Positions 2,314 through 11,287 are shown, counted from the first letter of the stretch. The stretch is 11,662 bases of DNA from a virus (IMGVR_UViG_2695420859_000009), one strand, 5' to 3'. Translations and numbers: made by a program. Notes: generated by a model not told the origin, from the letters alone.

Positions 2314-3384
2314 ATGGCTAACGCCTGGCTCAGATTATGGCATGACATGCCAAATGACCCTAAGTGGCGAACAATTGCCAGGGTGTCAGGGCAGCCAATT
2401 GCAACAGTGATGGCAGTGTATATCCACCTCCTGGTGAGCGCGTCACGAAATGTCACGCGAGGTCACATTGATGTCACGACAGAAGATTTGGCAAGTGCGC
2501 TCGACGTGACAGAAGAGGTAATTGATTCAATTTTGCAGACGATGCAGGGGCGGGTACTTGATGGTGATTTAATCACTGGATGGGAAAAACGCCAGGTGCT
2601 TAAAGAGGACAACGGCAATATTTCGCAAACCGCAAAATCTCCGGCAGAGCGCAAGAGGGCGCAGCGTGAGAGGGAAAGAAAGCGGGAACAAAATGGCGAT
2701 TGTCACGGCGCGTCACGAAATGTCACGCACATGTCACGACGAGTCACGACAGATAAAGATACAGATAGAGATACAGATAAAGAAGATCAAAACACTATGG
2801 TCCATGGCGTAAAAAACGCCACGAACCATGTAGGGGATGTTCAGACCGTCACTCCTGGCCAGCCCGCAGGCACGACACCGGAAGCCGATTCAGCGTATGC
2901 GCTGAAAGCCGATTCGGGCGCTGTGCAGCAGGCGATGACCGCTGGGCCGGAGCAATCACACCAACTGCAGCAGCCTGAAGCCGATTCCGCCATTCAGCGG
3001 GAAGCCGATCGGGTAGTCCCGGAAAACACCGGGCAGCCTGTGGGACGAGTGGATTATCCGGATGTGTTCGAACAGGTCTGGCGGGAATACCCGTTACGAG
3101 CCGGGGCAAACCCGAAGAAATCCGCTTTCAGTGCCTGGAAGGCCAGATTACGCGAGGGGGTGCCACCAGAGGCCATGCTGGATGGTGTAAGGCGTTACAC
3201 AAGATACCTGGCTGCTACCGGGAAAACGGGAACGGAATTTGTTCAGCGAGCGACGACGTTTTTTGGACCGGACCGGAATTTTGAAAACCCCTGGTTGCTC
3301 CCGGTAAGCGGCACGAACAACCAGCGTTGTGTTAATCATATTTCTGAACCGGACACCGAAATTCCGCCGGGATTCAGAGGGTAA
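2314..3384 (+). CDS. Phage replication initiator, lambda O-like (iteron-binding N-terminal part, acidic linker, C-terminal domain)
   Basis: Track ORF 2308..3384; ATG at 2314 with GAGGTGAG SD is preferred over GTG 2308. Two iteron clusters and an AT-rich GATA-repeat tract (encoding DKDTDRDTDKEDQ) lie inside the gene, as for ori-lambda inside gene O. It directly follows the immunity/cro-like operon. Confidence 0.65.
   Translation: MANAWLRLWHDMPNDPKWRTIARVSGQPIATVMAVYIHLLVSASRNVTRGHIDVTTEDLASALDVTEEVIDSILQTMQGRVLDGDLITGWEKRQVLKEDNGNISQTAKSPAERKRAQRERERKREQNGDCHGASRNVTHMSRRVTTDKDTDRDTDKEDQNTMVHGVKNATNHVGDVQTVTPGQPAGTTPEADSAYALKADSGAVQQAMTAGPEQSHQLQQPEADSAIQREADRVVPENTGQPVGRVDYPDVFEQVWREYPLRAGANPKKSAFSAWKARLREGVPPEAMLDGVRRYTRYLAATGKTGTEFVQRATTFFGPDRNFENPWLLPVSGTNNQRCVNHISEPDTEIPPGFRG
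2439..2480. repeat. Iteron cluster 1: GTCACG repeated at about 10-bp spacing
   Basis: GTCACG at 2442, 2452 and 2473 plus GTCACA at 2462. The 21-mer CGCGTCACGAAATGTCACGC is repeated exactly in cluster 2 at 2709..2729. Confidence 0.5.
2701..2800. repeat. Iteron cluster 2 (5 x GTCACG at 10-11 bp spacing) followed by an AT-rich GATA/GATACA repeat tract; candidate origin of replication
   Basis: GTCACG at 2702, 2712, 2722, 2733 and 2743, then AGATAAAGATACAGATAGAGATACAGATAAAGAAGATCAAAACACT (2751..2796). Iterons one helical turn apart beside an AT-rich unwinding element is the classic ori layout. Confidence 0.5.
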
Positions 3385-3421
3385 CAGATTTCAGGTCATG
3401 GGGTAATTTTCAGGAGGGCTT

Positions 3422-3697
3422 GTGGCAAAAGTTTTTACTCCCGAACTGCGGGAAGAAGTGAAGGCGCGCATTGTGGAACTGGTACGCAGAGATGGGCGAA
3501 AAACGCGTAAACAACTGGAAAATGAAACCGGGGCGACGAGACACCTGATAGAAGTTCTGGTGAAAGAGCTGGTAGTTAGTGGCGCAGTATATGGTTCAGG
3601 ACATGGAATATTTCCTTCGGAGCAGGCTCGTAAGGACTGGGGAAAAGCCCGCAAAAAAAATGTCGAGAGCGGCAGTGAAAAAGAAGAGCGACCCTGA
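3422..3697 (+). CDS. Small basic protein (91 aa, possible winged-helix DNA-binding), possibly frameshifted into the next ORF
   Basis: Track ORF; GTG start at 3422 with a strong AGGAGG SD 4 nt upstream. The frame ends shortly after an A8 homopolymer (3653..3660), and the +1 frame stays open for another 56 codons. Confidence 0.4.
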   Translation: MAKVFTPELREEVKARIVELVRRDGRKTRKQLENETGATRHLIEVLVKELVVSGAVYGSGHGIFPSEQARKDWGKARKKNVESGSEKEERP

Positions 3698-3830
3698 CCT
3701 GATTTATTCATTGCTAGATGGCGAAATACGCCGTTACAACAGACGACAGAATATAATTTGTCGCGAGTGTCGTCAGAGCGAAGTTATGCAGCGCATACTG
3801 GAATTTTATCAGGGAAATGTTCGGTATTAA
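3579..3830 (+). CDS. Overlapping-frame ORF; its 3' two-thirds (from about 3660) may be the C-terminal continuation of the 3422 gene
   Basis: Track ORF 3579..3830 overlaps 3422..3697 by 119 nt in the +1 frame. The tail LIYSLLDGEIRRYNRRQNIICRECRQSEVMQRILEFYQGNVRY looks protein-like. There is no good RBS for an independent start. Confidence 0.3.
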   Translation: MAQYMVQDMEYFLRSRLVRTGEKPAKKMSRAAVKKKSDPDLIYSLLDGEIRRYNRRQNIICRECRQSEVMQRILEFYQGNVRY

Positions 3831-3974
3831 TTGAAGTGACGAAATTAAAGAGCATTAGTTCAGATATTAATTGACACTTCGATGGCACAGGCCCAGACCT
3901 AGTCTGGTTGTCAGCTTTGAGCTAGGTGAACGTTGGTATCGTTAGTTTGTATTAATCAACGGAGAATAGGCCAA

Positions 3975-4005
3975 ATGACTTTTCTTTGCCTCTTTTAATT
4001 ATAAT
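3975..4005 (+). promoter_or_regulatory. Candidate sigma70 promoter in the AT-rich tract upstream of the 932-aa gene
   Basis: Perfect TATAAT at 4000..4005 with an ATGACT/TGACTT -35-like element 18-19 bp upstream (3975..3981). The gene SD AGGAA at 4063..4067 lies 6 nt before ATG 4074. Confidence 0.3.
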
Positions 4006-4073
4006 TCAAGTTCAATTGATTACATTGAAGTACTAATGTGAGTCCGTCAAACAAATAGCTCAAGGAATAGGTC

Positions 4074-6872
4074 ATGTGGGGAAGTGAAAACAAACAAAAT
4101 CTGGACGTACTGGATCCTGTGCAGTTGGTGCGTATCGAAGCGGTACACCGGGGGTTCCTTTACCAGCATCTTTACGCTGTAGGCTGCTTACTTTTGGCGC
4201 AGAGGGCAGCTATGGACTCAGTAACTGTCGAGCTTGATGAGGATATTGAGCTGAAATCCAAACAGGAACGTCTCTACATTCAGGTTAAAACCCGTTCAAA
4301 ACCTATTATGCCCAACGATGTGTCGGGGGCTCTGGAGCGATTTGTAAAGCTCAGAAATGAGCATACTTCGGCAAACCGCGAAGGGGTGGCTTCTTTTGTG
4401 ATTATTGTAAACCAGGCGCCTGGACCGCTGCTTCAGAAGATGATTGACGATAAAAAGCTTCCTTCTGATGTTCTTATTGTCTGGCCCCAGTCGACAGCTG
4501 GACGTCACCCGGCACTTCCGCCCGCATGGAGTACTCTGGCTGATGCGGCCACATGGTGTATCGCAGAAGCAGAAAAGCTGAAATTTTCACTATTGTCCCC
4601 AGAATCCTTGATTTGGAAGTTAGCAGGATTGGTTCAGCTTGCCGCCACCGGAGGCGATACCAATGGACAACATACGTTTTTCACGGAAGAACTTACTGAA
4701 CTATTTGAACAGTTGATCGTTCAGCTACAGGACTTTCCTGCACCACCAGCACTGTACCGCCCACAGAACGAAGAACCTTCTCTCACATCTGGTGAGCGGA
4801 TCCGTATCCTTTGTGGACTCTCAGGTGCAGGCAAGACAGCTTGGGCCGCACAGGCCGCATTACACTCCACTGCACTTTGTGCTTATTACGACACCGGTGA
4901 TCTTCCCGGTCCAGCTCTGGCCAGTACGCTGGTGCGCGAGATGGCTGCTAGATTTACAGCCCGTGACCAAGACGGTTTGCGCAGGATTTTGCTCCCCGGT
5001 GCCAGTGGTTTTGAGGCTCTTAGGAGTTTTGATACCTACCTGAAAGAGCAGGGTACCACCTTGGTGCTGGTTCTGGATAACGCCCATCGTGTACCTGCGG
5101 AAAATCTACTGGATGTTCTGAATGCAACTACACATATTCGTTTTGTGCTGTTGTGCCAGCCTCACGAAAACGTTCGCGAACTGGAGGTCATGACGGGGCT
5201 ACAGCGCGAGGGCCTGCAGGGATGGAATCTCGATACGGTAGCTGTCGTTGTAAACGATATCGGAGGATTTGCCACCGCTATGGGATACGAGCAGCTACGG
5301 GCTTACACTGGTGGTCTTCCCCTGTATGTAGAGAGCGCCGCAAAAATCGCCGTTTCTGATTATGAGCGTAATGTCGATGCTCTGTGTGCTGAACTCCAGC
5401 AACAAACCCATACTGCGGAAACCGCCCAAGAAATTATTCTGTCACGTGTATTTCAGGGATTTGAATCACTACTTCAGAGCGCGCTGGCATTGTTCAGTCT
5501 CTCTGACGTAGGGCTGAGTCGCGAAGAGATTTCTACGCTCCTAATCAATTCGCTGAACATTTCACCAAGCAGTGCTGCTTCTTTAATTAGGAAAATGCGC
5601 GCTACTGGCACTATTGAAATTTATGGAAACCAGACCCTGAAGGTACATGATGCTGTCAGGGGGCTAGGACTGCAACATCTGGAACTGATGGATCAGGGTA
5701 TATCGAACAAAGCGCTACTAGCGCTGAAAGACCTTTTAGTTGAAAGTCTTCATAATACCCGCAATACAAAACGGTTATCGTTGTTGACTCAACTTTATAT
5801 TAAGCTCAATGATGTCACGACGTTGATCGAACTCTCAGGCCAAGAAATGTTTTATGAGATGGGCGTGACGGTCGACATTCTTGCAAGCTTGGAGCGTGCT
5901 GCAACATCGGACTTATTGGGACCTGTTCATAAATTCTGGGCATTGGATGGCCTTGTTTTCGTTGAGCTTAAAGACGGAATATCCGACCACATTGCTCAGA
6001 GGTTAAACATCATGGGAGCTTTACTTGCGGAGCACAAGTTCGGCTATCAAGAAGAGATGGCCTATGCAATGAAACGAATGTTATTTTCGGCAGAAAGCAA
6101 TGATGCACGAGAAGTTCAAAAGCTGGCACAGGAAGTCCGCCCCCAACTCCCAGATGAAGAACATAAACGCATCTTTGACTACAACCATGCCATTGCACTC
6201 TGGAGATTAAAAAAACTCAAGGATGCTGAAACATTAAGCTGTAATGTTATACAAGGGTACTATTCTTTATTTGGTATCACACCTGCTGATGTCATAGGAA
6301 AAAACGCCGACGCATTATGGAAAACTATTAATCATTCCGAAAATATGCAGGAACACTTTAAACATATGGCTGATGCTCTGGAGTTGCTGGCCAGAATTCG
6401 TGATGCGCAGGGAAAACTGTCACCATTACTGCGTATTCATTCGATGAAGTTCTACAATCTGGCCATGGCCCCGGAATCCATGGTCAGGGTGGGCCAAGAT
6501 CTGGCGGATGAGTTTGTTGCCATAAAGGATTACGACGGTGCCAAGGAAGTCATGGAGCAACATGTCCTGCCGGTTGTCAATGAGGCAGGTCTAGTACATC
6601 GACTGATTCAGGTTCGAAGCCAATACGCAGTCATATTAGCACTATCGGGTCAGCATAAAGCAGCTGATGTCGAAATGCAGCGCCTTGCTCCCTATATCGA
6701 AGGCCTCACAGGTGTACAGCGTCAAGAAATCCAAAATCAATCAAATTACATCGTACAGCTTGCCCATAAAGCAGCAAAGACTAAATTAACTGAAGTTTTT
6801 GGTGCGGTCGGCCGGAATGAACAATGCCCCTGTGGCTCGGGAATAAAGTACAAAAAATGTCACGGTGCCTGA
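4074..6872 (+). CDS. Large multidomain protein (932 aa): N-terminal PD-(D/E)xK-like nuclease-type region, STAND/NB-ARC-like P-loop NTPase, helical repeat region, C-terminal SEC-C zinc-binding motif; candidate single-gene antiphage (Avs-like) defence protein
   Basis: Track ORF with AGGAA SD. Walker A GLSGAGKT (residues 248-255, nt 4815..4838); Walker B LVLVLDN (D335 at nt 5076..5078); GLPL motif at residues 413-416 as in NB-ARC/STAND NTPases. N-terminal GFLYQ...VELDEDIELKS...IQVK resembles Cap4/Mrr-type nuclease signatures (from memory). Terminal CPCGSGIKYKKCHG (residues 918-931, nt 6825..6866) matches the SEC-C motif. About 450 residues of the C-terminal half are predominantly helical by eye. 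The gene is flanked by AT-rich intergenic DNA. Confidence 0.85.
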   Translation: MWGSENKQNLDVLDPVQLVRIEAVHRGFLYQHLYAVGCLLLAQRAAMDSVTVELDEDIELKSKQERLYIQVKTRSKPIMPNDVSGALERFVKLRNEHTSANREGVASFVIIVNQAPGPLLQKMIDDKKLPSDVLIVWPQSTAGRHPALPPAWSTLADAATWCIAEAEKLKFSLLSPESLIWKLAGLVQLAATGGDTNGQHTFFTEELTELFEQLIVQLQDFPAPPALYRPQNEEPSLTSGERIRILCGLSGAGKTAWAAQAALHSTALCAYYDTGDLPGPALASTLVREMAARFTARDQDGLRRILLPGASGFEALRSFDTYLKEQGTTLVLVLDNAHRVPAENLLDVLNATTHIRFVLLCQPHENVRELEVMTGLQREGLQGWNLDTVAVVVNDIGGFATAMGYEQLRAYTGGLPLYVESAAKIAVSDYERNVDALCAELQQQTHTAETAQEIILSRVFQGFESLLQSALALFSLSDVGLSREEISTLLINSLNISPSSAASLIRKMRATGTIEIYGNQTLKVHDAVRGLGLQHLELMDQGISNKALLALKDLLVESLHNTRNTKRLSLLTQLYIKLNDVTTLIELSGQEMFYEMGVTVDILASLERAATSDLLGPVHKFWALDGLVFVELKDGISDHIAQRLNIMGALLAEHKFGYQEEMAYAMKRMLFSAESNDAREVQKLAQEVRPQLPDEEHKRIFDYNHAIALWRLKKLKDAETLSCNVIQGYYSLFGITPADVIGKNADALWKTINHSENMQEHFKHMADALELLARIRDAQGKLSPLLRIHSMKFYNLAMAPESMVRVGQDLADEFVAIKDYDGAKEVMEQHVLPVVNEAGLVHRLIQVRSQYAVILALSGQHKAADVEMQRLAPYIEGLTGVQRQEIQNQSNYIVQLAHKAAKTKLTEVFGAVGRNEQCPCGSGIKYKKCHGA

Positions 6873-7149
6873 GTCTTTGTACGACCATGCGGGCCTTATT
6901 GTCTTGCTATTGCTCTTATGGTTCGCCTTTCTGATTGATTTCATATTGGCGAGGTGACGGGAGTTAAGTAGAATGGCTGCGGGTGCTTGAGGCTATCTGT
7001 CTCAGGCATGAACACCAAAGGCAGATAGAGAAAAGCCCCAGTTAACATTACGCGTCCTGCAAGACGCTTAACATTAATCTGAGGCTCAATCTATGAACGG
7101 CAAATCTAGGTTAGCCTCTTACGTGCCGAAAGGCAAGGAGAAGCAGGCT

Positions 7150-7305
7150 ATGAAGCAGCAAAAGGCGATGTTAATCGTCCTGATCGTCATCTGTTTAACC
7201 GTCATAGTGACGGCACTGGTAACGAGGAAAGACCTCTGCGAGGTACGAATCCGAACCGGCCAGACGGAGGTCGCTGTCTTCACAGCTTACGAACCTGAGG
7301 AGTAA
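7150..7305 (+). CDS. hokD: Hok/Gef-family type I toxin (51 aa membrane peptide)
   Basis: MKQQKAMLIVLIVICLTVIVTALVTRKDLCEVRIRTGQTEVAVFTAYEPEE matches the Hok/RelF family as I remember it. SD AGGAG at 7136..7140. The track ORF 7093..7305 adds an in-frame 19-codon 5' extension. Downstream rem-like and ydfU-like genes fit the Qin hokD neighbourhood. Confidence 0.85.
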   Translation: MKQQKAMLIVLIVICLTVIVTALVTRKDLCEVRIRTGQTEVAVFTAYEPEE

Positions 7306-7373
7306 GAGACCAGGCGGGGGAGAAATCCCTCGCCACCTCTGATGTGTCAGGCATCCTCAATGCACCCGCACTT

Positions 7374-7400
7374 AACCCGCTTCGGCGGGTTTTGTTTTTT
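7374..7400 (+). terminator. Rho-independent terminator / 3' stem-loop of the hok mRNA
   Basis: Stem CCCGC (7376..7380), loop TTCG, stem GCGGG (7385..7389), followed by TTTTGTTTTTT (7390..7400). Confidence 0.55.
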
Positions 7401-7472: not shown

Positions 7473-7751
7473 ATGGCGCACGATACCAAATTACACAATT
7501 CTAATGATTCTGCTGTCTTTGCCAGCAGGTGCGGACGGCGTTTTCACGCATTCACATCAGACTGGTTCCAGCATCCTCCATGCACTGAAGAGCAGGCTGA
7601 ATGGATAATTCAGTGTTACCGCAGGCGTGGATACGAGGTTAAGAAAGCTCTTAGTCTCGACTATCGTCACTGGATAATCTCAGTCAGACTCCCTTACTCC
7701 GAACGCCCACCGCGTCCGTCCCGCACATTCCAGCAACGCATCTGGAGGTAA
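7473..7751 (+). CDS. Small hypothetical protein in the rem position of Qin-like prophages (92 aa from ATG 7473)
   Basis: Track ORF 7344..7751, but its first 43 codons span the terminator hairpin, so the internal ATG at 7473 is preferred. Its SD is weak. The rem-like call rests on synteny only. Confidence 0.4.
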   Translation: MAHDTKLHNSNDSAVFASRCGRRFHAFTSDWFQHPPCTEEQAEWIIQCYRRRGYEVKKALSLDYRHWIISVRLPYSERPPRPSRTFQQRIWR

Positions 7752-7752
7752 C

Positions 7753-8808
7753 GTGCGGGTATTACTTCGACCTGTTCTGGTACCGGAACTCGGGCTGGTG
7801 ATCGTTAAGCCGGGCCGTGAATCCATGCCGGTATTCCACAATACCCGGGTACTGGTGGAGCCGGAACCGAAAAGCATGCGTAATCTGCCGTCCGGGGTCG
7901 TTCCTGCCGTTCGCCAGCCGCTGGTGGAAGACAAAACATTGCTGCCGTTTTTCAGTAACGCACGGGTGATTCGTGCTGCTGGTGGTGCTGGTGCATTGTC
8001 TGACTGGCTGTTGCGCCATATTAAATCCTGCCAGTGGCCACACGGCGATTATCATCACAGCGAAACCGTCATTCACCGTTATGGTACCGGCGCAATGGTG
8101 TTGTGCTGGCACTGCGACAACCAGTTGCGTGACCAGACCTCCGAATCACTCGGGCAACTTGCTCATCAAAACCTGTCAGCATGGATGATTGACGTCATCG
8201 GTCACGCAATAAGCGGTACGCAGGAGCGTGAATTATCTCTGGCTGAATTATCCTGGTGGGCGGTCCGCAATCAGGTGGCGGACGCGCTACCGGAAGCGGT
8301 ATTACGTCGTTCGCTGGGGTTGCGTGCGGAAAAAATCCGCTCAATGTACCGTGAAAGCGACATCGTGCCGGGAGAGCAGACCGCCACCAGCATACTGAAG
8401 CAGCGCACAAAAAATCTTGCGCCGATGCCTCACGCCCACCAGCAAAACCCGCCACAGGAAAAGACGGTGGTAAGCATTGCCGTTGATCCGGAGTCACCGG
8501 CTCAGTATCTCCAGCGCCAGAAACCACAACGGGAAGAGATGCCCGTATACACGCGCTGGGTAAAAACGCAGAAATGCATGACGTGTGACAATCAGGCAGA
8601 TGATCCGCATCACATCATTGGTCATGGACTAGGAGGGATGGGAACGAAGGCTGACGATTTGTTTGTTATTCCGCTGTGCCGTAAATGTCATAACGAACTG
8701 CACGCCGGGGTAAAAGATTTTGAAGAAAAACACGGCAGCCAGCTGTTGTTGCTGATTCGTTTTTTAATGCACGCGAGAAATTCGGGCGTCCTGAAGTGGA
8801 AAGCATAA
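7753..8808 (+). CDS. ydfU: YdfU-like DUF968 protein with a C-terminal HNH-type nuclease motif
   Basis: Track ORF with GTG start and GGAGG SD. C-terminal CMTCDNQADDPHHIIGHGLGGMGTKADDLFVIPLCRKCHNELH (nt 8575..8703) has the C-x2-C ... HH ... C-x2-C-H-x3-H arrangement of HNH nucleases. Size (351 aa) and position match Qin YdfU as I remember it. Confidence 0.7.
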   Translation: MRVLLRPVLVPELGLVIVKPGRESMPVFHNTRVLVEPEPKSMRNLPSGVVPAVRQPLVEDKTLLPFFSNARVIRAAGGAGALSDWLLRHIKSCQWPHGDYHHSETVIHRYGTGAMVLCWHCDNQLRDQTSESLGQLAHQNLSAWMIDVIGHAISGTQERELSLAELSWWAVRNQVADALPEAVLRRSLGLRAEKIRSMYRESDIVPGEQTATSILKQRTKNLAPMPHAHQQNPPQEKTVVSIAVDPESPAQYLQRQKPQREEMPVYTRWVKTQKCMTCDNQADDPHHIIGHGLGGMGTKADDLFVIPLCRKCHNELHAGVKDFEEKHGSQLLLLIRFLMHARNSGVLKWKA

Positions 8809-9174
8809 ATGACTGAACGCATAGAATTTGTTTTGCCTTACCCGCCAACGGTGAATACTTACTGGCGACGTCGTGGCAGCACATATTTTGTATCAAAAGT
8901 CGGTGAGCGTTATCGCCGTGATGTGGCACTAATTGTTCGCCAGCAGCGGTTGAAATTAAACCTGTCCGGAAGGCTGGCAATAAAAATTATTGCAGAGCCA
9001 CCGGATAAGCGCCGTCGTGACCTGGACAATATCCTGAAGGCACCACTGGATGCACTGACGCATGCGGGGCTGCTCATAGACGACGAGCAGTTTGATGAAA
9101 TCAATATTGTGCGCGGTCAGCTTGTTCCTGGTGGGCGGTTGGGGATAAAAATCACAGAACTGGGGTGCGCATGA
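8809..9174 (+). CDS. rusA: RusA-family Holliday junction resolvase
   Basis: 121-aa product with LPYPPTVNTYWRRRG, PDKRRRDLDNILKAPLDALT and GGRLGIKITELG, matching RusA motifs (catalytic acidic cluster around RRRDLDN). The start ATG abuts the ydfU stop (TAAATG). Confidence 0.85.
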   Translation: MTERIEFVLPYPPTVNTYWRRRGSTYFVSKVGERYRRDVALIVRQQRLKLNLSGRLAIKIIAEPPDKRRRDLDNILKAPLDALTHAGLLIDDEQFDEINIVRGQLVPGGRLGIKITELGCA

Positions 9175-9860
9175 ATAACCAGTATTTACAGTTTGTGCGT
9201 GAGCAGCTCATTATCGCCACCGCTGATTTGAGTGGGGCAACAAAAGGTCAGCTTGAAGCCTGGCAGGAGAATGCCATGTTCGATACAGGGCGTTACAGGC
9301 GTAAAAAAATCCGGTACCGCGATGAAGTGACTGGAAAAATGATAACGCGGGATAATCCCCCAATCCCGGGAAAGCAATCGCTGGCGAAGGGGACGTCAAT
9401 TCCTCTGGTCAGTCCGATTGAGTTTTCGACATCATCGTGGCGGCGGGCTGTTCTGTCTCTTGAAGAACATCATAAAGCCTGGTTGTTGTGGTGTTACAGC
9501 GGGAGTATTTGTTGGGAATATCAGATCGCGATAACACAGTGGGCGTGGAATGAATTTAATACTCAATCCGGTACCAGAAAAATTGCAGGGAAAACGCAGG
9601 AACGCCTGAAAAAATTAATCTGGCTGGCGGCGCAGGCAGTAAAAGCAGAACTTTTTGGTGGGGAAGGTTATGAATACAAGGAGCTGGCATTACTGGTGGG
9701 AGTGACAACTAAAAACTGGTCCAAAACATTTACTCGTCACTGGGTTGCAATGAAACACATTTTTCACCGACTGGATAGTGAGGCTTTATTGTTTGTAATG
9801 AGAACGCGTTCAAAACAAAAGGCGGCATTTTCAAAGCAAAGTGTTGCAAAAGTAGATTGA
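9171..9860 (+). CDS. Late-gene antiterminator Q-like protein (function inferred mainly from position)
   Basis: Track ORF 9165..9860. ATG 9171 overlaps the rusA stop (ATGA). It is the last gene before a promoter, a short-transcript terminator and a tRNA cluster, which is the layout downstream of Q in lambdoid and Stx phages. The sequence itself is not confidently recognised. Confidence 0.5.
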   Translation: MNNQYLQFVREQLIIATADLSGATKGQLEAWQENAMFDTGRYRRKKIRYRDEVTGKMITRDNPPIPGKQSLAKGTSIPLVSPIEFSTSSWRRAVLSLEEHHKAWLLWCYSGSICWEYQIAITQWAWNEFNTQSGTRKIAGKTQERLKKLIWLAAQAVKAELFGGEGYEYKELALLVGVTTKNWSKTFTRHWVAMKHIFHRLDSEALLFVMRTRSKQKAAFSKQSVAKVD

Positions 9861-10070: not shown

Positions 10071-10146
10071 GGCCCTTTAGCTCAGTGGTGAGAGCGAGCG
10101 ACTCATAATCGCCAGGCCGCTGGTTCAAATCCAGCAAGGGCCACCA
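10071..10146 (+). tRNA. tRNA with CAU anticodon, closest to Ile2 (lysidine-type ileX/ileZ-like) rather than Met
   Basis: Cloverleaf folded by hand: acceptor GGCCCUU/AAGGGCC, anticodon loop CUCAUAA (CAU at 10104..10106), T-arm GCUGG-UUCAAAU-CCAGC, discriminator A, encoded CCA. Highly similar to E. coli ileX from memory. Confidence 0.8.
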
Positions 10147-10153
10147 TCACATA

Positions 10154-10230
10154 CCGCCATTAGCTCATCGGGATAGAACGCCAGCCTTCGAAGCTGGTTT
10201 CGCGGGGTTCGAGTCTCCGATGGCGGTCCA
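10154..10230 (+). tRNA. tRNA-Arg (anticodon UCG)
   Basis: Acceptor CCGCCAU/AUGGCGG, anticodon stem CCAGC/GCUGG with loop CUUCGAA, T-loop UUCGAGU, discriminator U, encoded CCA. Confidence 0.75.
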
Positions 10231-10243
10231 TTATCGGTATTCT

Positions 10244-10320
10244 GCGTTTTTAGCTCAGCCGGACAGAGCAATTGCCTTCTAAGCAATCGGTCACTGGTTC
10301 GAACCCAGTACAACGCACCA
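10244..10320 (+). tRNA. tRNA-Arg (anticodon UCU, argU/argO-like)
   Basis: Acceptor GCGUUUU/ACAACGC (one mismatch), anticodon loop CUUCUAA (UCU at 10278..10280), T-arm CUGG-UUCGAAC-CCAG, encoded CCA. Resembles argU from memory. Confidence 0.75.
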
Positions 10321-10489: not shown

Positions 10490-10922
10490 ATGTTTGGTAT
10501 TTTTGGTAAAAAAAGCCCGCAGAGCGGCAACGGAAATTAGAAAGTTTGAAAAACGCGATCTGGCACAGGTGGTGATTAACGCCGCATACCTGGTGGCCTG
10601 TGCAGATGGTGAATGTGAGGCTTCCTAGAAAGCGAAGATCGAACAGGTACTGCGTAATCAGCCTGCGCTGTACGCGTTTACGTCAGAAATTAATGCGATT
10701 AGCGCAACCATTATCGGTCAGCTGGATACGAACTTTAAAACTGGTCGTCGTGCGGCGTTACGTGAGATCGAGGATGTGAAACACGATACGCGTGAAGCGG
10801 AAGATGTGCTGGATGTGGCGGTGGCCATTGCGGAGGCAGACGGCGAAATTGAGCCGGAAGAGCGCAAGGTGCTGGAAGAGATTGCCGGTGTTCTGGGTCT
10901 TCGTCTGGAGAATTACCTGTGA
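10490..10922 (+). pseudogene. TerB-like (two ADGE motifs) gene disrupted by a frameshift at an A7 run and an in-frame amber codon
   Basis: ATG 10490 with AAGGA SD reads MFGIFGKKSPQSGNGN then stops. The other frame from the A7 run (10508..10514) reads KKARRAATEIRKFEKRDLAQVVINAAYLVACADGECEAS, then TAG at 10626..10628, then KAKIEQVLRNQ...VAVAIAEADGEIEPEERKVLEEIAGVLGLRLENYL to TGA 10920..10922. No ATG-initiated ORF covers the region, so the track misses it. Confidence 0.55.
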
Positions 10923-11086: not shown

Positions 11087-11287
11087 TTTTTTTGTTTGCT
11101 GTTTATTAAAAACACTTCTGCATGGTGAATCCCCCTGTGCGGTGGGGCAATCAGCAAGAAGGAATATGGGGTAATCGCGGATTCAGGTGCTGATACTGAA
11201 TTCACCGGGAGGCACCCGGCACCATGCTTTGCCACAAAAGTGTTATTTCTGTTTTTCTCAAACTATCATCGTTATCCCTTTATTTTC

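Follow-up and report, generated by a model that had tools for sequence, protein, structure and literature searches.

We analysed an 11,662-nucleotide stretch of the viral sequence IMGVR_UViG_2695420859_000009 (the whole stretch is referred to below as the window), which corresponds to the early-right region of a lambdoid prophage of the Qin/Rac type that has integrated at tRNA-Ser, next to mtfA, in an Escherichia coli host. Between a Ren-like DUF977 gene and the hok/sok locus there is a recombination-prone slot that carries unrelated cassettes in different prophages. In the window the slot is occupied by a 3.0-kb cassette, and we put at about 70% the probability that its product, a protein of 932 residues, is an Avs-like antiviral STAND protein that works in the manner of SeAvs3 and SeAvs7. 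This reading draws on the observed boundaries of the cassette, its rarity, the variability of the slot, the domain architecture of the protein, the conservation of its motifs and the association of its homologues with defence islands and mobile elements. The cassette, the domains of its product and the flanking backbone genes described below all lie on the plus strand of the window.

The boundaries of the cassette were mapped by blastn of the window against ten related loci. In eight of these, homology to the window ended at position 3922 and resumed at 6896, leaving 3923–6895 as non-homologous cargo; in the other two, which carry arrays of small genes, the limits were 3822 and 6961/6962. The alignments, which the original prediction had proposed, thus mapped conserved flanks around a variable interior, and they bore out its claim of a swappable cargo slot upstream of hok, since unrelated cargo occupies that place in related prophages and phages. 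The accessory island had been drawn more widely, from 3385 to 7149; its left limit is close to a real mosaic junction, and the cargo proper has the narrower limits given above. A unit extending from 3893 to 6896, composed of a leader, one open reading frame (ORF) and a 24-bp tail, had 91.8% nucleotide identity to a locus (L018) in which it lies beside a P4-type integrase and a type I restriction-modification (R-M) system. Homology to a Serratia chromosome (L019) ran from 4063 to 6896, with its right end at the identical base. The unit recurs in unrelated contexts with a common right end and is therefore a mobile unit of ~3.0 kb that contains one gene.

The breakpoints shared by eight comparators (3922 and 6896) were also considered as a possible site-specific junction, an explanation we rejected. 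The comparators share an additional 13–53 bp with one another on the left and ~250 bp on the right. Their shared left segment includes a hairpin, GTCCGCTTTG-TGC-CAAAGCGGAC, that is complete in them and of which the spacer of the window (3831–3922) holds half. The extra sequence shared on both sides suggests that the common breakpoints mainly reflect the ends of the window's own cassette and not a site-specific mechanism.

The gene is rare. It was detected in 16 of the 5,426 complete E. coli genomes examined, bounded by the same flanks in every case, and was missing from >99% of prophages with this backbone; the DUF977 flank was found in 2,342 of the genomes. These counts agree with the prediction that the large gene is cargo and not a conserved backbone gene. 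Fifteen of the 16 copies were intact, with 98.9–100% identity, and one (H16) was split by an IS3-family element.

The base composition of the region was in partial agreement with expectation. Both flanks of the gene had been described as AT-rich, and this was confirmed on the left, where 3831–4073 had 37% GC and the cassette leader (3923–4073) 34%, compared to ~50% in the backbone, and was not confirmed on the right, where 6873–7092 had 46.8%. The ORF itself was barely below the backbone, with 48% GC overall and 45% at third codon positions, values too weak to argue alone for a foreign origin. A TATAAT sequence (4000–4005) and a ribosome-binding site, AAGGA, are present in the leader, which is also conserved in the L018 copy; expression of the gene in the lysogen from this AT-rich leader is plausible.

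The ORF at 4074–6872 encodes WP_000264572.1, annotated as "SEC-C metal-binding domain-containing protein", and has the P-loop motifs of the 932-residue nucleoside triphosphatase (NTPase) originally predicted. Its N-terminal region (residues ~18–215; 4125–4718) is predicted to be a Cap4/DUF4297-like PD-(D/E)xK nuclease, with a Cap4-type D...(E/Q)xK motif, a Cap4-like fold and invariant residues E53, D55, D57, E59, Q70 and K72. This is followed by a STAND NTPase module (residues ~241–540; 4794–5693) with Walker A (GLSGAGKT, 248–255) and Walker B (LVLDN, 331–336) motifs. The module also contains a GGLPL sequence (413–417), which is the GxP/GLPL motif of STAND helical domains, and a VHD sequence (524–526) providing the MHD-like histidine of the winged-helix domain, both of which are conserved. 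Residues ~541–905 (5694–6788) form an all-helical TPR-like sensor, as judged from the secondary structure of an AlphaFold2 (AF2) model and from TPR matches that include PlcR, APC subunits and KLC. The protein ends in a SEC-C (SecA-like) metal-binding motif (6804–6869).

Profile searches and alignments were consistent with these assignments. Pfam matches were obtained for Cap4_nuclease (residues 25–77, just above cut-off), AAA_22 (239–364, above cut-off) and SEC-C (914–931; PF02810, 38.8 bits against a cut-off of 20.4), and the last of these also matched structures of SecA/YchJ metal-binding domains in the PDB. In an alignment of 45 homologues with 49–92% identity, D55/D57/E59...Q70-x-K72, GxxGxGKT, hhhhD, GLPL and VHD were all invariant, including GLSGAGKT (248–255) and LVLD (332–335). 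C918, C920, C929 and H930, which make up a CxCx8CH zinc-ligand motif, were kept in at least 90% of the homologues. The SEC-C tail was the most conserved segment of the protein, and conservation of the sensor was slightly below that of the NTPase.

The AF2 model (mean pLDDT 79.7, pTM 0.54) matched 6mfv (E 2e-13), plant resistosomes and EfAvs5 in Foldseek searches. The modelled nucleotide-binding, helical and winged-helix domains resemble those of solved STAND proteins and are followed by the repeat sensor, so that the Avs-type tripartite arrangement of effector, STAND module and sensor is predicted within one protein. PADLOC v2 matched N-terminal LmuA, DUF4297 and HamA fragments as well as SEC-C fragments, and an NCBIfam scan of the protein returned domain fragments only. 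Based on its architecture, we regard the protein as Avs-like; the comparison to named families covers PADLOC Avs1–5, PD-lambda-4 and PDB sequences, including those of the solved SeAvs3, EcAvs4 and EfAvs5, and placed it in none of these families. Lee et al. 2026 reported at least 90 defence-associated STAND sensor clusters, and Avs7–24, from seeds found partly through Cap4 effectors (PMC13581612), and for this reason the family of the 932-residue protein probably falls within their census.

Homologues of the protein form a large and uniform family. They are ~900–960 residues long, always encoded by a single gene, and collinear from end to end down to ~29% identity, with length and all catalytic motifs conserved to ~30% identity. 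At least 287 clusters (50% identity) were found at E ≤ 1e-30, in Gamma-, Beta- and Alphaproteobacteria, and on plasmids, integrative and conjugative elements (ICEs), Tn7-like elements and prophages. Fifty-four plasmids carried homologues, 21 of them conjugative.

In eight of nine genomic contexts sampled, which are a small and non-random set, Gabija, AbiH, type I R-M, nSTAND3, TIR or DruA was encoded within 7 kb of the homologue. The Vibrio cholerae gene lies downstream of a umuC-like gene and beside Gabija, AbiH and a PIN-domain gene; the Yersinia gene is beside Gabija; and the Enterobacter gene is beside Gabija, DUF5677 and TIR genes in a locus with a TraI-domain gene. In Pseudomonas the homologue is followed by AbiH within a metal-resistance element, and in Alteromonas it again precedes AbiH, at a locus where Tn7-like TnsD/TnsE genes are present as well. 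The remaining defence-linked contexts were those of L018 (integrase and type I R-M), V. splendidus (an nSTAND3 protein and an AAA_13 ATPase) and Variovorax (DruA and an HNH protein nearby). AbiH adjoins the homologue in Pseudomonas and Alteromonas and is encoded 4.5 kb from it in V. cholerae, with orientations that differ (L011–L014, L027–L028, L010), an association that may represent a recurrent partnership or co-transfer.

The 932-residue protein resembles SeAvs3 and SeAvs7 (Gao et al. 2022; Lee et al. 2026, PMC13581612) in having an N-terminal Cap4-like nuclease, a STAND module and a TPR sensor. In those proteins autoinhibition is relieved when the TPR sensor binds a conserved phage protein; with ATP, the STAND module then forms a tetramer, in which the assembled Cap4 domains cleave double-stranded DNA (PMC13581612). 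By analogy, we infer anti-phage function, trigger sensing, oligomerisation and DNA cleavage for the prophage-encoded protein. Its C-terminal TPR domain would bind a protein of an infecting phage, and this binding would release autoinhibition and lead to ATP-dependent oligomerisation through the STAND module. Oligomerisation would bring the N-terminal Cap4-like PD-(D/E)xK domains together, and the assembled nuclease would cut double-stranded DNA indiscriminately, so that the infection would be aborted and the lysogen population, and hence the prophage, protected. The SEC-C zinc knuckle would be an extra module, perhaps with a regulatory or partner-binding role.

There are also differences from the characterised proteins. 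No sequence relationship to SeAvs3 or SeAvs7 was detectable with the PADLOC Avs models or PDB sequences, the protein is much shorter than SeAvs3 (932 versus 2,028 residues), and it carries the conserved C-terminal SEC-C zinc motif, a tail without counterpart in the Avs structures matched here. The STAND proteins of the MNS and AP-ATPase types, such as MalT, PH0952, Apaf-1 and plant NB-ARC proteins, differ in having regulatory or CARD/CC effector domains and no nuclease, and their identity to the 932-residue protein is 11–13%.

The CxCx8CH motif of the tail is shared with the metal-binding domains of SecA, YecA and YchJ, and in SecA it binds SecB and ribosomes (bioRxiv 613315; PMC6620043). A SEC-C motif is also present in Rugutis, a validated lactococcal anti-phage protein (PMC11381338), although there it is at the N-terminus and the two proteins are otherwise unrelated. 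It is conceivable, if improbable in our judgement, that the tail tethers the immune sensor to a host factor (SecB or the ribosome), with phage proteins sensed co-translationally or together with a housekeeping partner. If true, this would add to the EF-Tu case of SeAvs7 a second, independent instance in which a receptor of the Avs type has co-opted a host factor, and would explain the recurrence of SEC-C in defence-linked proteins, namely Rugutis and the PADLOC E1-E2, E2 and PDC-S12 models matched by the motif.

The contents of the slot in other genomes were diverse. At least nine cargo types other than the STAND gene were found between DUF977 and hok across 12 loci, with clustered breakpoints. 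They included a protein with an FRG domain, encoded both in E. coli AVS0947 and in the cultured phage Tritos, a DUF5677 protein, a two-gene module with weak matches to HEPN_RES_NTD1 and GNAT, unrelated proteins of 251 and 269 residues encoded on the opposite strand, QueH, a helix-turn-helix (HTH) regulator with an acetyltransferase in phage Evi, arrays of small Ea22/DUF7167 genes, and an unannotated 1.2-kb stretch. The FRG protein matched the PADLOC candidate PDC-S15 (E 7e-99). Cargos other than the FRG, DUF5677 and STAND genes had no PADLOC match and belonged to PHROGs of unknown function. The DUF5677 gene, which is the slot cargo in one locus (L008, 2188–3213), is also found in an Enterobacter island, flanked by Gabija and a TIR/SEFIR gene (L022/L024, 2391–3452), and because of this second location it is a candidate defence gene.

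Together, these data support the description of the slot as an accessory hotspot with a conflict-system flavour. The label of defence hotspot is only partly shown and is inferred for most cargos. The suggestion that the site is a hotspot for toxin or defence cargo was thus upheld as regards its variability. Among temperate phages, P2 and P4 have established cargo hotspots (PMC9122126). As in those described by Rousset et al. 2022, the slot has conserved core flanks, a short interval and many cargos, some of them defence-related; it differs in being in a lambdoid phage, between a Ren-like gene and hok/sok, and in that its defence content is by prediction and concerns a minority of cargos. A description of the DUF977–hok lambdoid slot was not found in the literature searched.

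Several observations weigh against an antiviral STAND protein in a conflict-related slot. The second acidic position of Walker B is an asparagine (D335-N336), with the consequence that ATP hydrolysis may be weak, and the inter-domain arrangement of the AF2 model should be considered unreliable at a pTM of 0.54. PADLOC v2 gave no full-length match and no AVAST/Avs or PD-lambda-4 match at E ≤ 0.01, only the SEC-C motif was matched in a sequence/profile search of the PDB, and a literature search by accession number and keyword turned up no paper that names the family. A consensus promoter scan around the gene gave nothing above shuffle expectation and no site in the leader; likewise, no terminator was detected near the gene, and the junction hairpins folded no better than shuffles (z ~ -0.4). 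The Serratia homologue, the sole exception among the sampled contexts, lies among housekeeping genes. With respect to the slot, occupancy was estimated roughly from 60 evenly spaced records of 5,450 matching ones. Twelve of the 60 had both flanks; seven of these carried an array of small Ea22/DUF7167-type genes, for which reason the array is probably the commonest state of the slot, and one carried QueH. In addition, hok was not enriched near known defence systems in a published survey (bioRxiv 10.1101/2025.08.07.668861).

The observations on the slot also favour another explanation, in which it is an ordinary lambdoid mosaic, or moron, junction where cassettes of any function are exchanged by recombination between conserved flanks, the STAND gene being there incidentally. 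The lack of PADLOC matches for most alternative cargos would fit this explanation, as would a second variable slot right after hok, which indicates that mosaicism is general in the region. Against it, the large cargos include one predicted STAND nuclease and one PADLOC candidate (PDC-S15), DUF5677 recurs inside the Gabija/TIR island in Enterobacter, one module combines weak HEPN_RES_NTD1 and GNAT matches, K-12 has the relBE toxin-antitoxin pair beside hok, and an unknown function leaves a role in defence possible. We consider the incidental explanation possible but doubtful.

Alternatively, the gene could be a decaying, non-functional passenger of a cryptic prophage. The frameshifts in the integrase and DUF977 genes, the internal stop in the TerB-family gene and the IS3-split copy in one of the 16 genomes are of the kind that such decay would produce, but the full-length ORF in the other 15 and the conservation of family length and catalytic motifs to ~30% identity make this very unlikely. 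Least likely of all is that the protein serves the phage life cycle or some other non-immune role, as a MalT-like regulator or a lytic nuclease degrading host DNA: lying between replication and Q in the orientation of the early-right operon, the gene could be transcribed on induction, but Pfam identified no DNA-binding HTH or LuxR-type domain in the protein, its nuclease catalytic residues are invariant, nearly all prophages with this backbone lack the gene, it is absent from cultured phage genomes, and its homologues are carried by plasmids, ICEs, Tn7-like elements and chromosomal islands, next to Gabija, AbiH or R-M genes, and not by phages. No close copy was found in 50,697 phage records and there was no PHROG family, and on these grounds we also rejected its being a regular phage gene.

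Having weighed these alternatives, we retain the Avs-like antiviral protein as the preferred reading, and turn to the comparison with E. coli K-12 on which the original prediction was founded. The transcriptional order of the Qin prophage in NC_000913.3 is relB-relE-hokD-rem-ydfU-ydfT(Q), which matches the order given in that prediction. Like the cassette, relBE is toxin-type accessory cargo directly upstream of hokD in the same prophage family. However, the idea that the STAND gene occupies the relBE slot held only in this respect, as the junctions differ: blastn homology of K-12 to the window starts at 7136, inside mok, and relBE is inserted 240 bp further right than the cassette. The start of homology inside mok is consistent with the published view that integration of relBE truncated hokD/mokD (PMC6379469), and, unlike the cassette, relBE truncates the hok regulatory region. 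The K-12 element is also without the replication and DUF977 left flank.

The window opens with dicB and ydfABC-like genes, a repressor, and ydaS-like and ydaT-like genes, followed by an O-like replisome organiser, DUF977, the 932-residue protein gene, hokD, a 92-codon ORF, a DUF968/ydfU-like gene, RusA, Q and three tRNAs. The replisome-organiser gene (2314–3384, from the RefSeq annotation of a 100%-identical strain) is the last of the highly conserved left backbone. Identity to related prophages was 96–100% up to ~3300 and 62–83% over DUF977, a fall that suggests a genuine mosaic junction near 3385, even though DUF977 belongs to the homologous backbone.

The DUF977/LygF/Ren-like gene (3422–3830), whose product belongs to PHROG 142, "Ren-like exclusion protein", is a divergent allele split by a 1-nt frameshift into ORFs at 3422–3697 and 3579–3830; Pfam DUF977 was matched by both ORFs, and PGAP annotated the gene as "frameshifted". 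The "small basic gene" that had been counted as cargo is this backbone gene. It is intact (138 residues) in strain AR_0089. Alleles with at least 95% identity were found in 16 genomes, equal to the number of cassette carriers, and the divergent allele appears to co-occur with the STAND cassette. The conserved spacer that follows (3831–3922) is the end of left-flank homology, as defined by the blastn breakpoints and junction sequences.

The conserved right flank begins at 6896 with a complete hok/sok/mok locus (6896–7400; Pfam HOK_GEF, Rfam sok) and has 93–100% identity to other prophages. Within it are sok (Rfam, 6981–7155, 110 bits), mok (7093–7305), hokD (7150–7305) and a terminator hairpin (7376–7400); the segment 6896–7149 is thus part of this locus. 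The second variable slot lies directly after hok (7375–7400 in the window; L004, L005, L015, L017). Its inserts are an HTH and ImmA/IrrE pair, a 130-residue ORF, or rem in K-12-type elements. They have a copy of the hok terminator hairpin ACCCGCTTCGGCGGGTTTTGTTTTT on either side, an arrangement suggestive of recombination between the repeated terminators.

Further downstream is a conserved 92-codon ORF (7473–7751; RefSeq, BLASTP, PHROG 1212), directly upstream of the DUF968/ydfU-like gene. The ORF had been taken as rem-like, an identity we rejected as BLASTP found no similarity to Rem; rem itself is absent here. The ORF instead matched an unannotated one in the rem–ydfU gap of K-12. K-12 MG1655 (NC_000913.3) has there an intact, unannotated 92-codon ORF that ends at the start of ydfU (8306–8585, minus strand, of the extracted K-12 locus L002) and is homologous to the "hypothetical protein" (PHROG 1212) annotated in other genomes. 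The right backbone (7753–9860; Pfam and RefSeq) continues with DUF968/ydfU-like (7753–8808), RusA (8809–9174) and the antiterminator Q (9171–9860). The predicted downstream order was therefore correct for hok, the ydfU-like gene and Q, which are in the same order as in Qin, and had omitted rusA, which is present here and not in K-12.

Other features were observed towards the ends of the window. A tandem duplication with a period of 335 bp (228–527 and 563–862, 97% identical) doubles the ydfA/ydfB-like small ORFs (276–512 and 611–847; 146–316 and 517–651). The closest genomes (L001) have a single copy of this unit, and as a result the whole window is not matched in one piece by any complete genome of the collection. 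The tRNA cluster 3' of Q (10071–10320) was assigned by ARAGORN as Met(cat)/Arg(tcg)/Arg(tct), the first of which RefSeq names Ile; AR_0089 has a differing set of four tRNAs at this position. An Rfam match to the small RNA STnc100 (101 bits) follows the cluster at 11091–11263. A TerB-family gene at ~10494–10922 has an internal stop and is a RefSeq pseudogene, and the integrase is frameshifted in matching strains; with these lesions the prophage itself is probably defective, but its STAND gene is intact.

No new principle is involved: sensors of the Avs type and cargo hotspots in prophages were already established. The 932-residue protein gene is nevertheless a good candidate for experiment. If confirmed, it would extend the STAND pattern-recognition receptors of bacteria by a widespread family, in a compact format of 932 residues and with an unusual SecA-type zinc tail whose role is directly testable. 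The Ren-like-to-hok slot, whose two conserved flanks are present in >40% of complete E. coli genomes, gives searches for new conflict genes in lambdoid prophages a defined target, and its cargos of no known function include DUF5677, the 251- and 269-residue proteins and the two-gene module.

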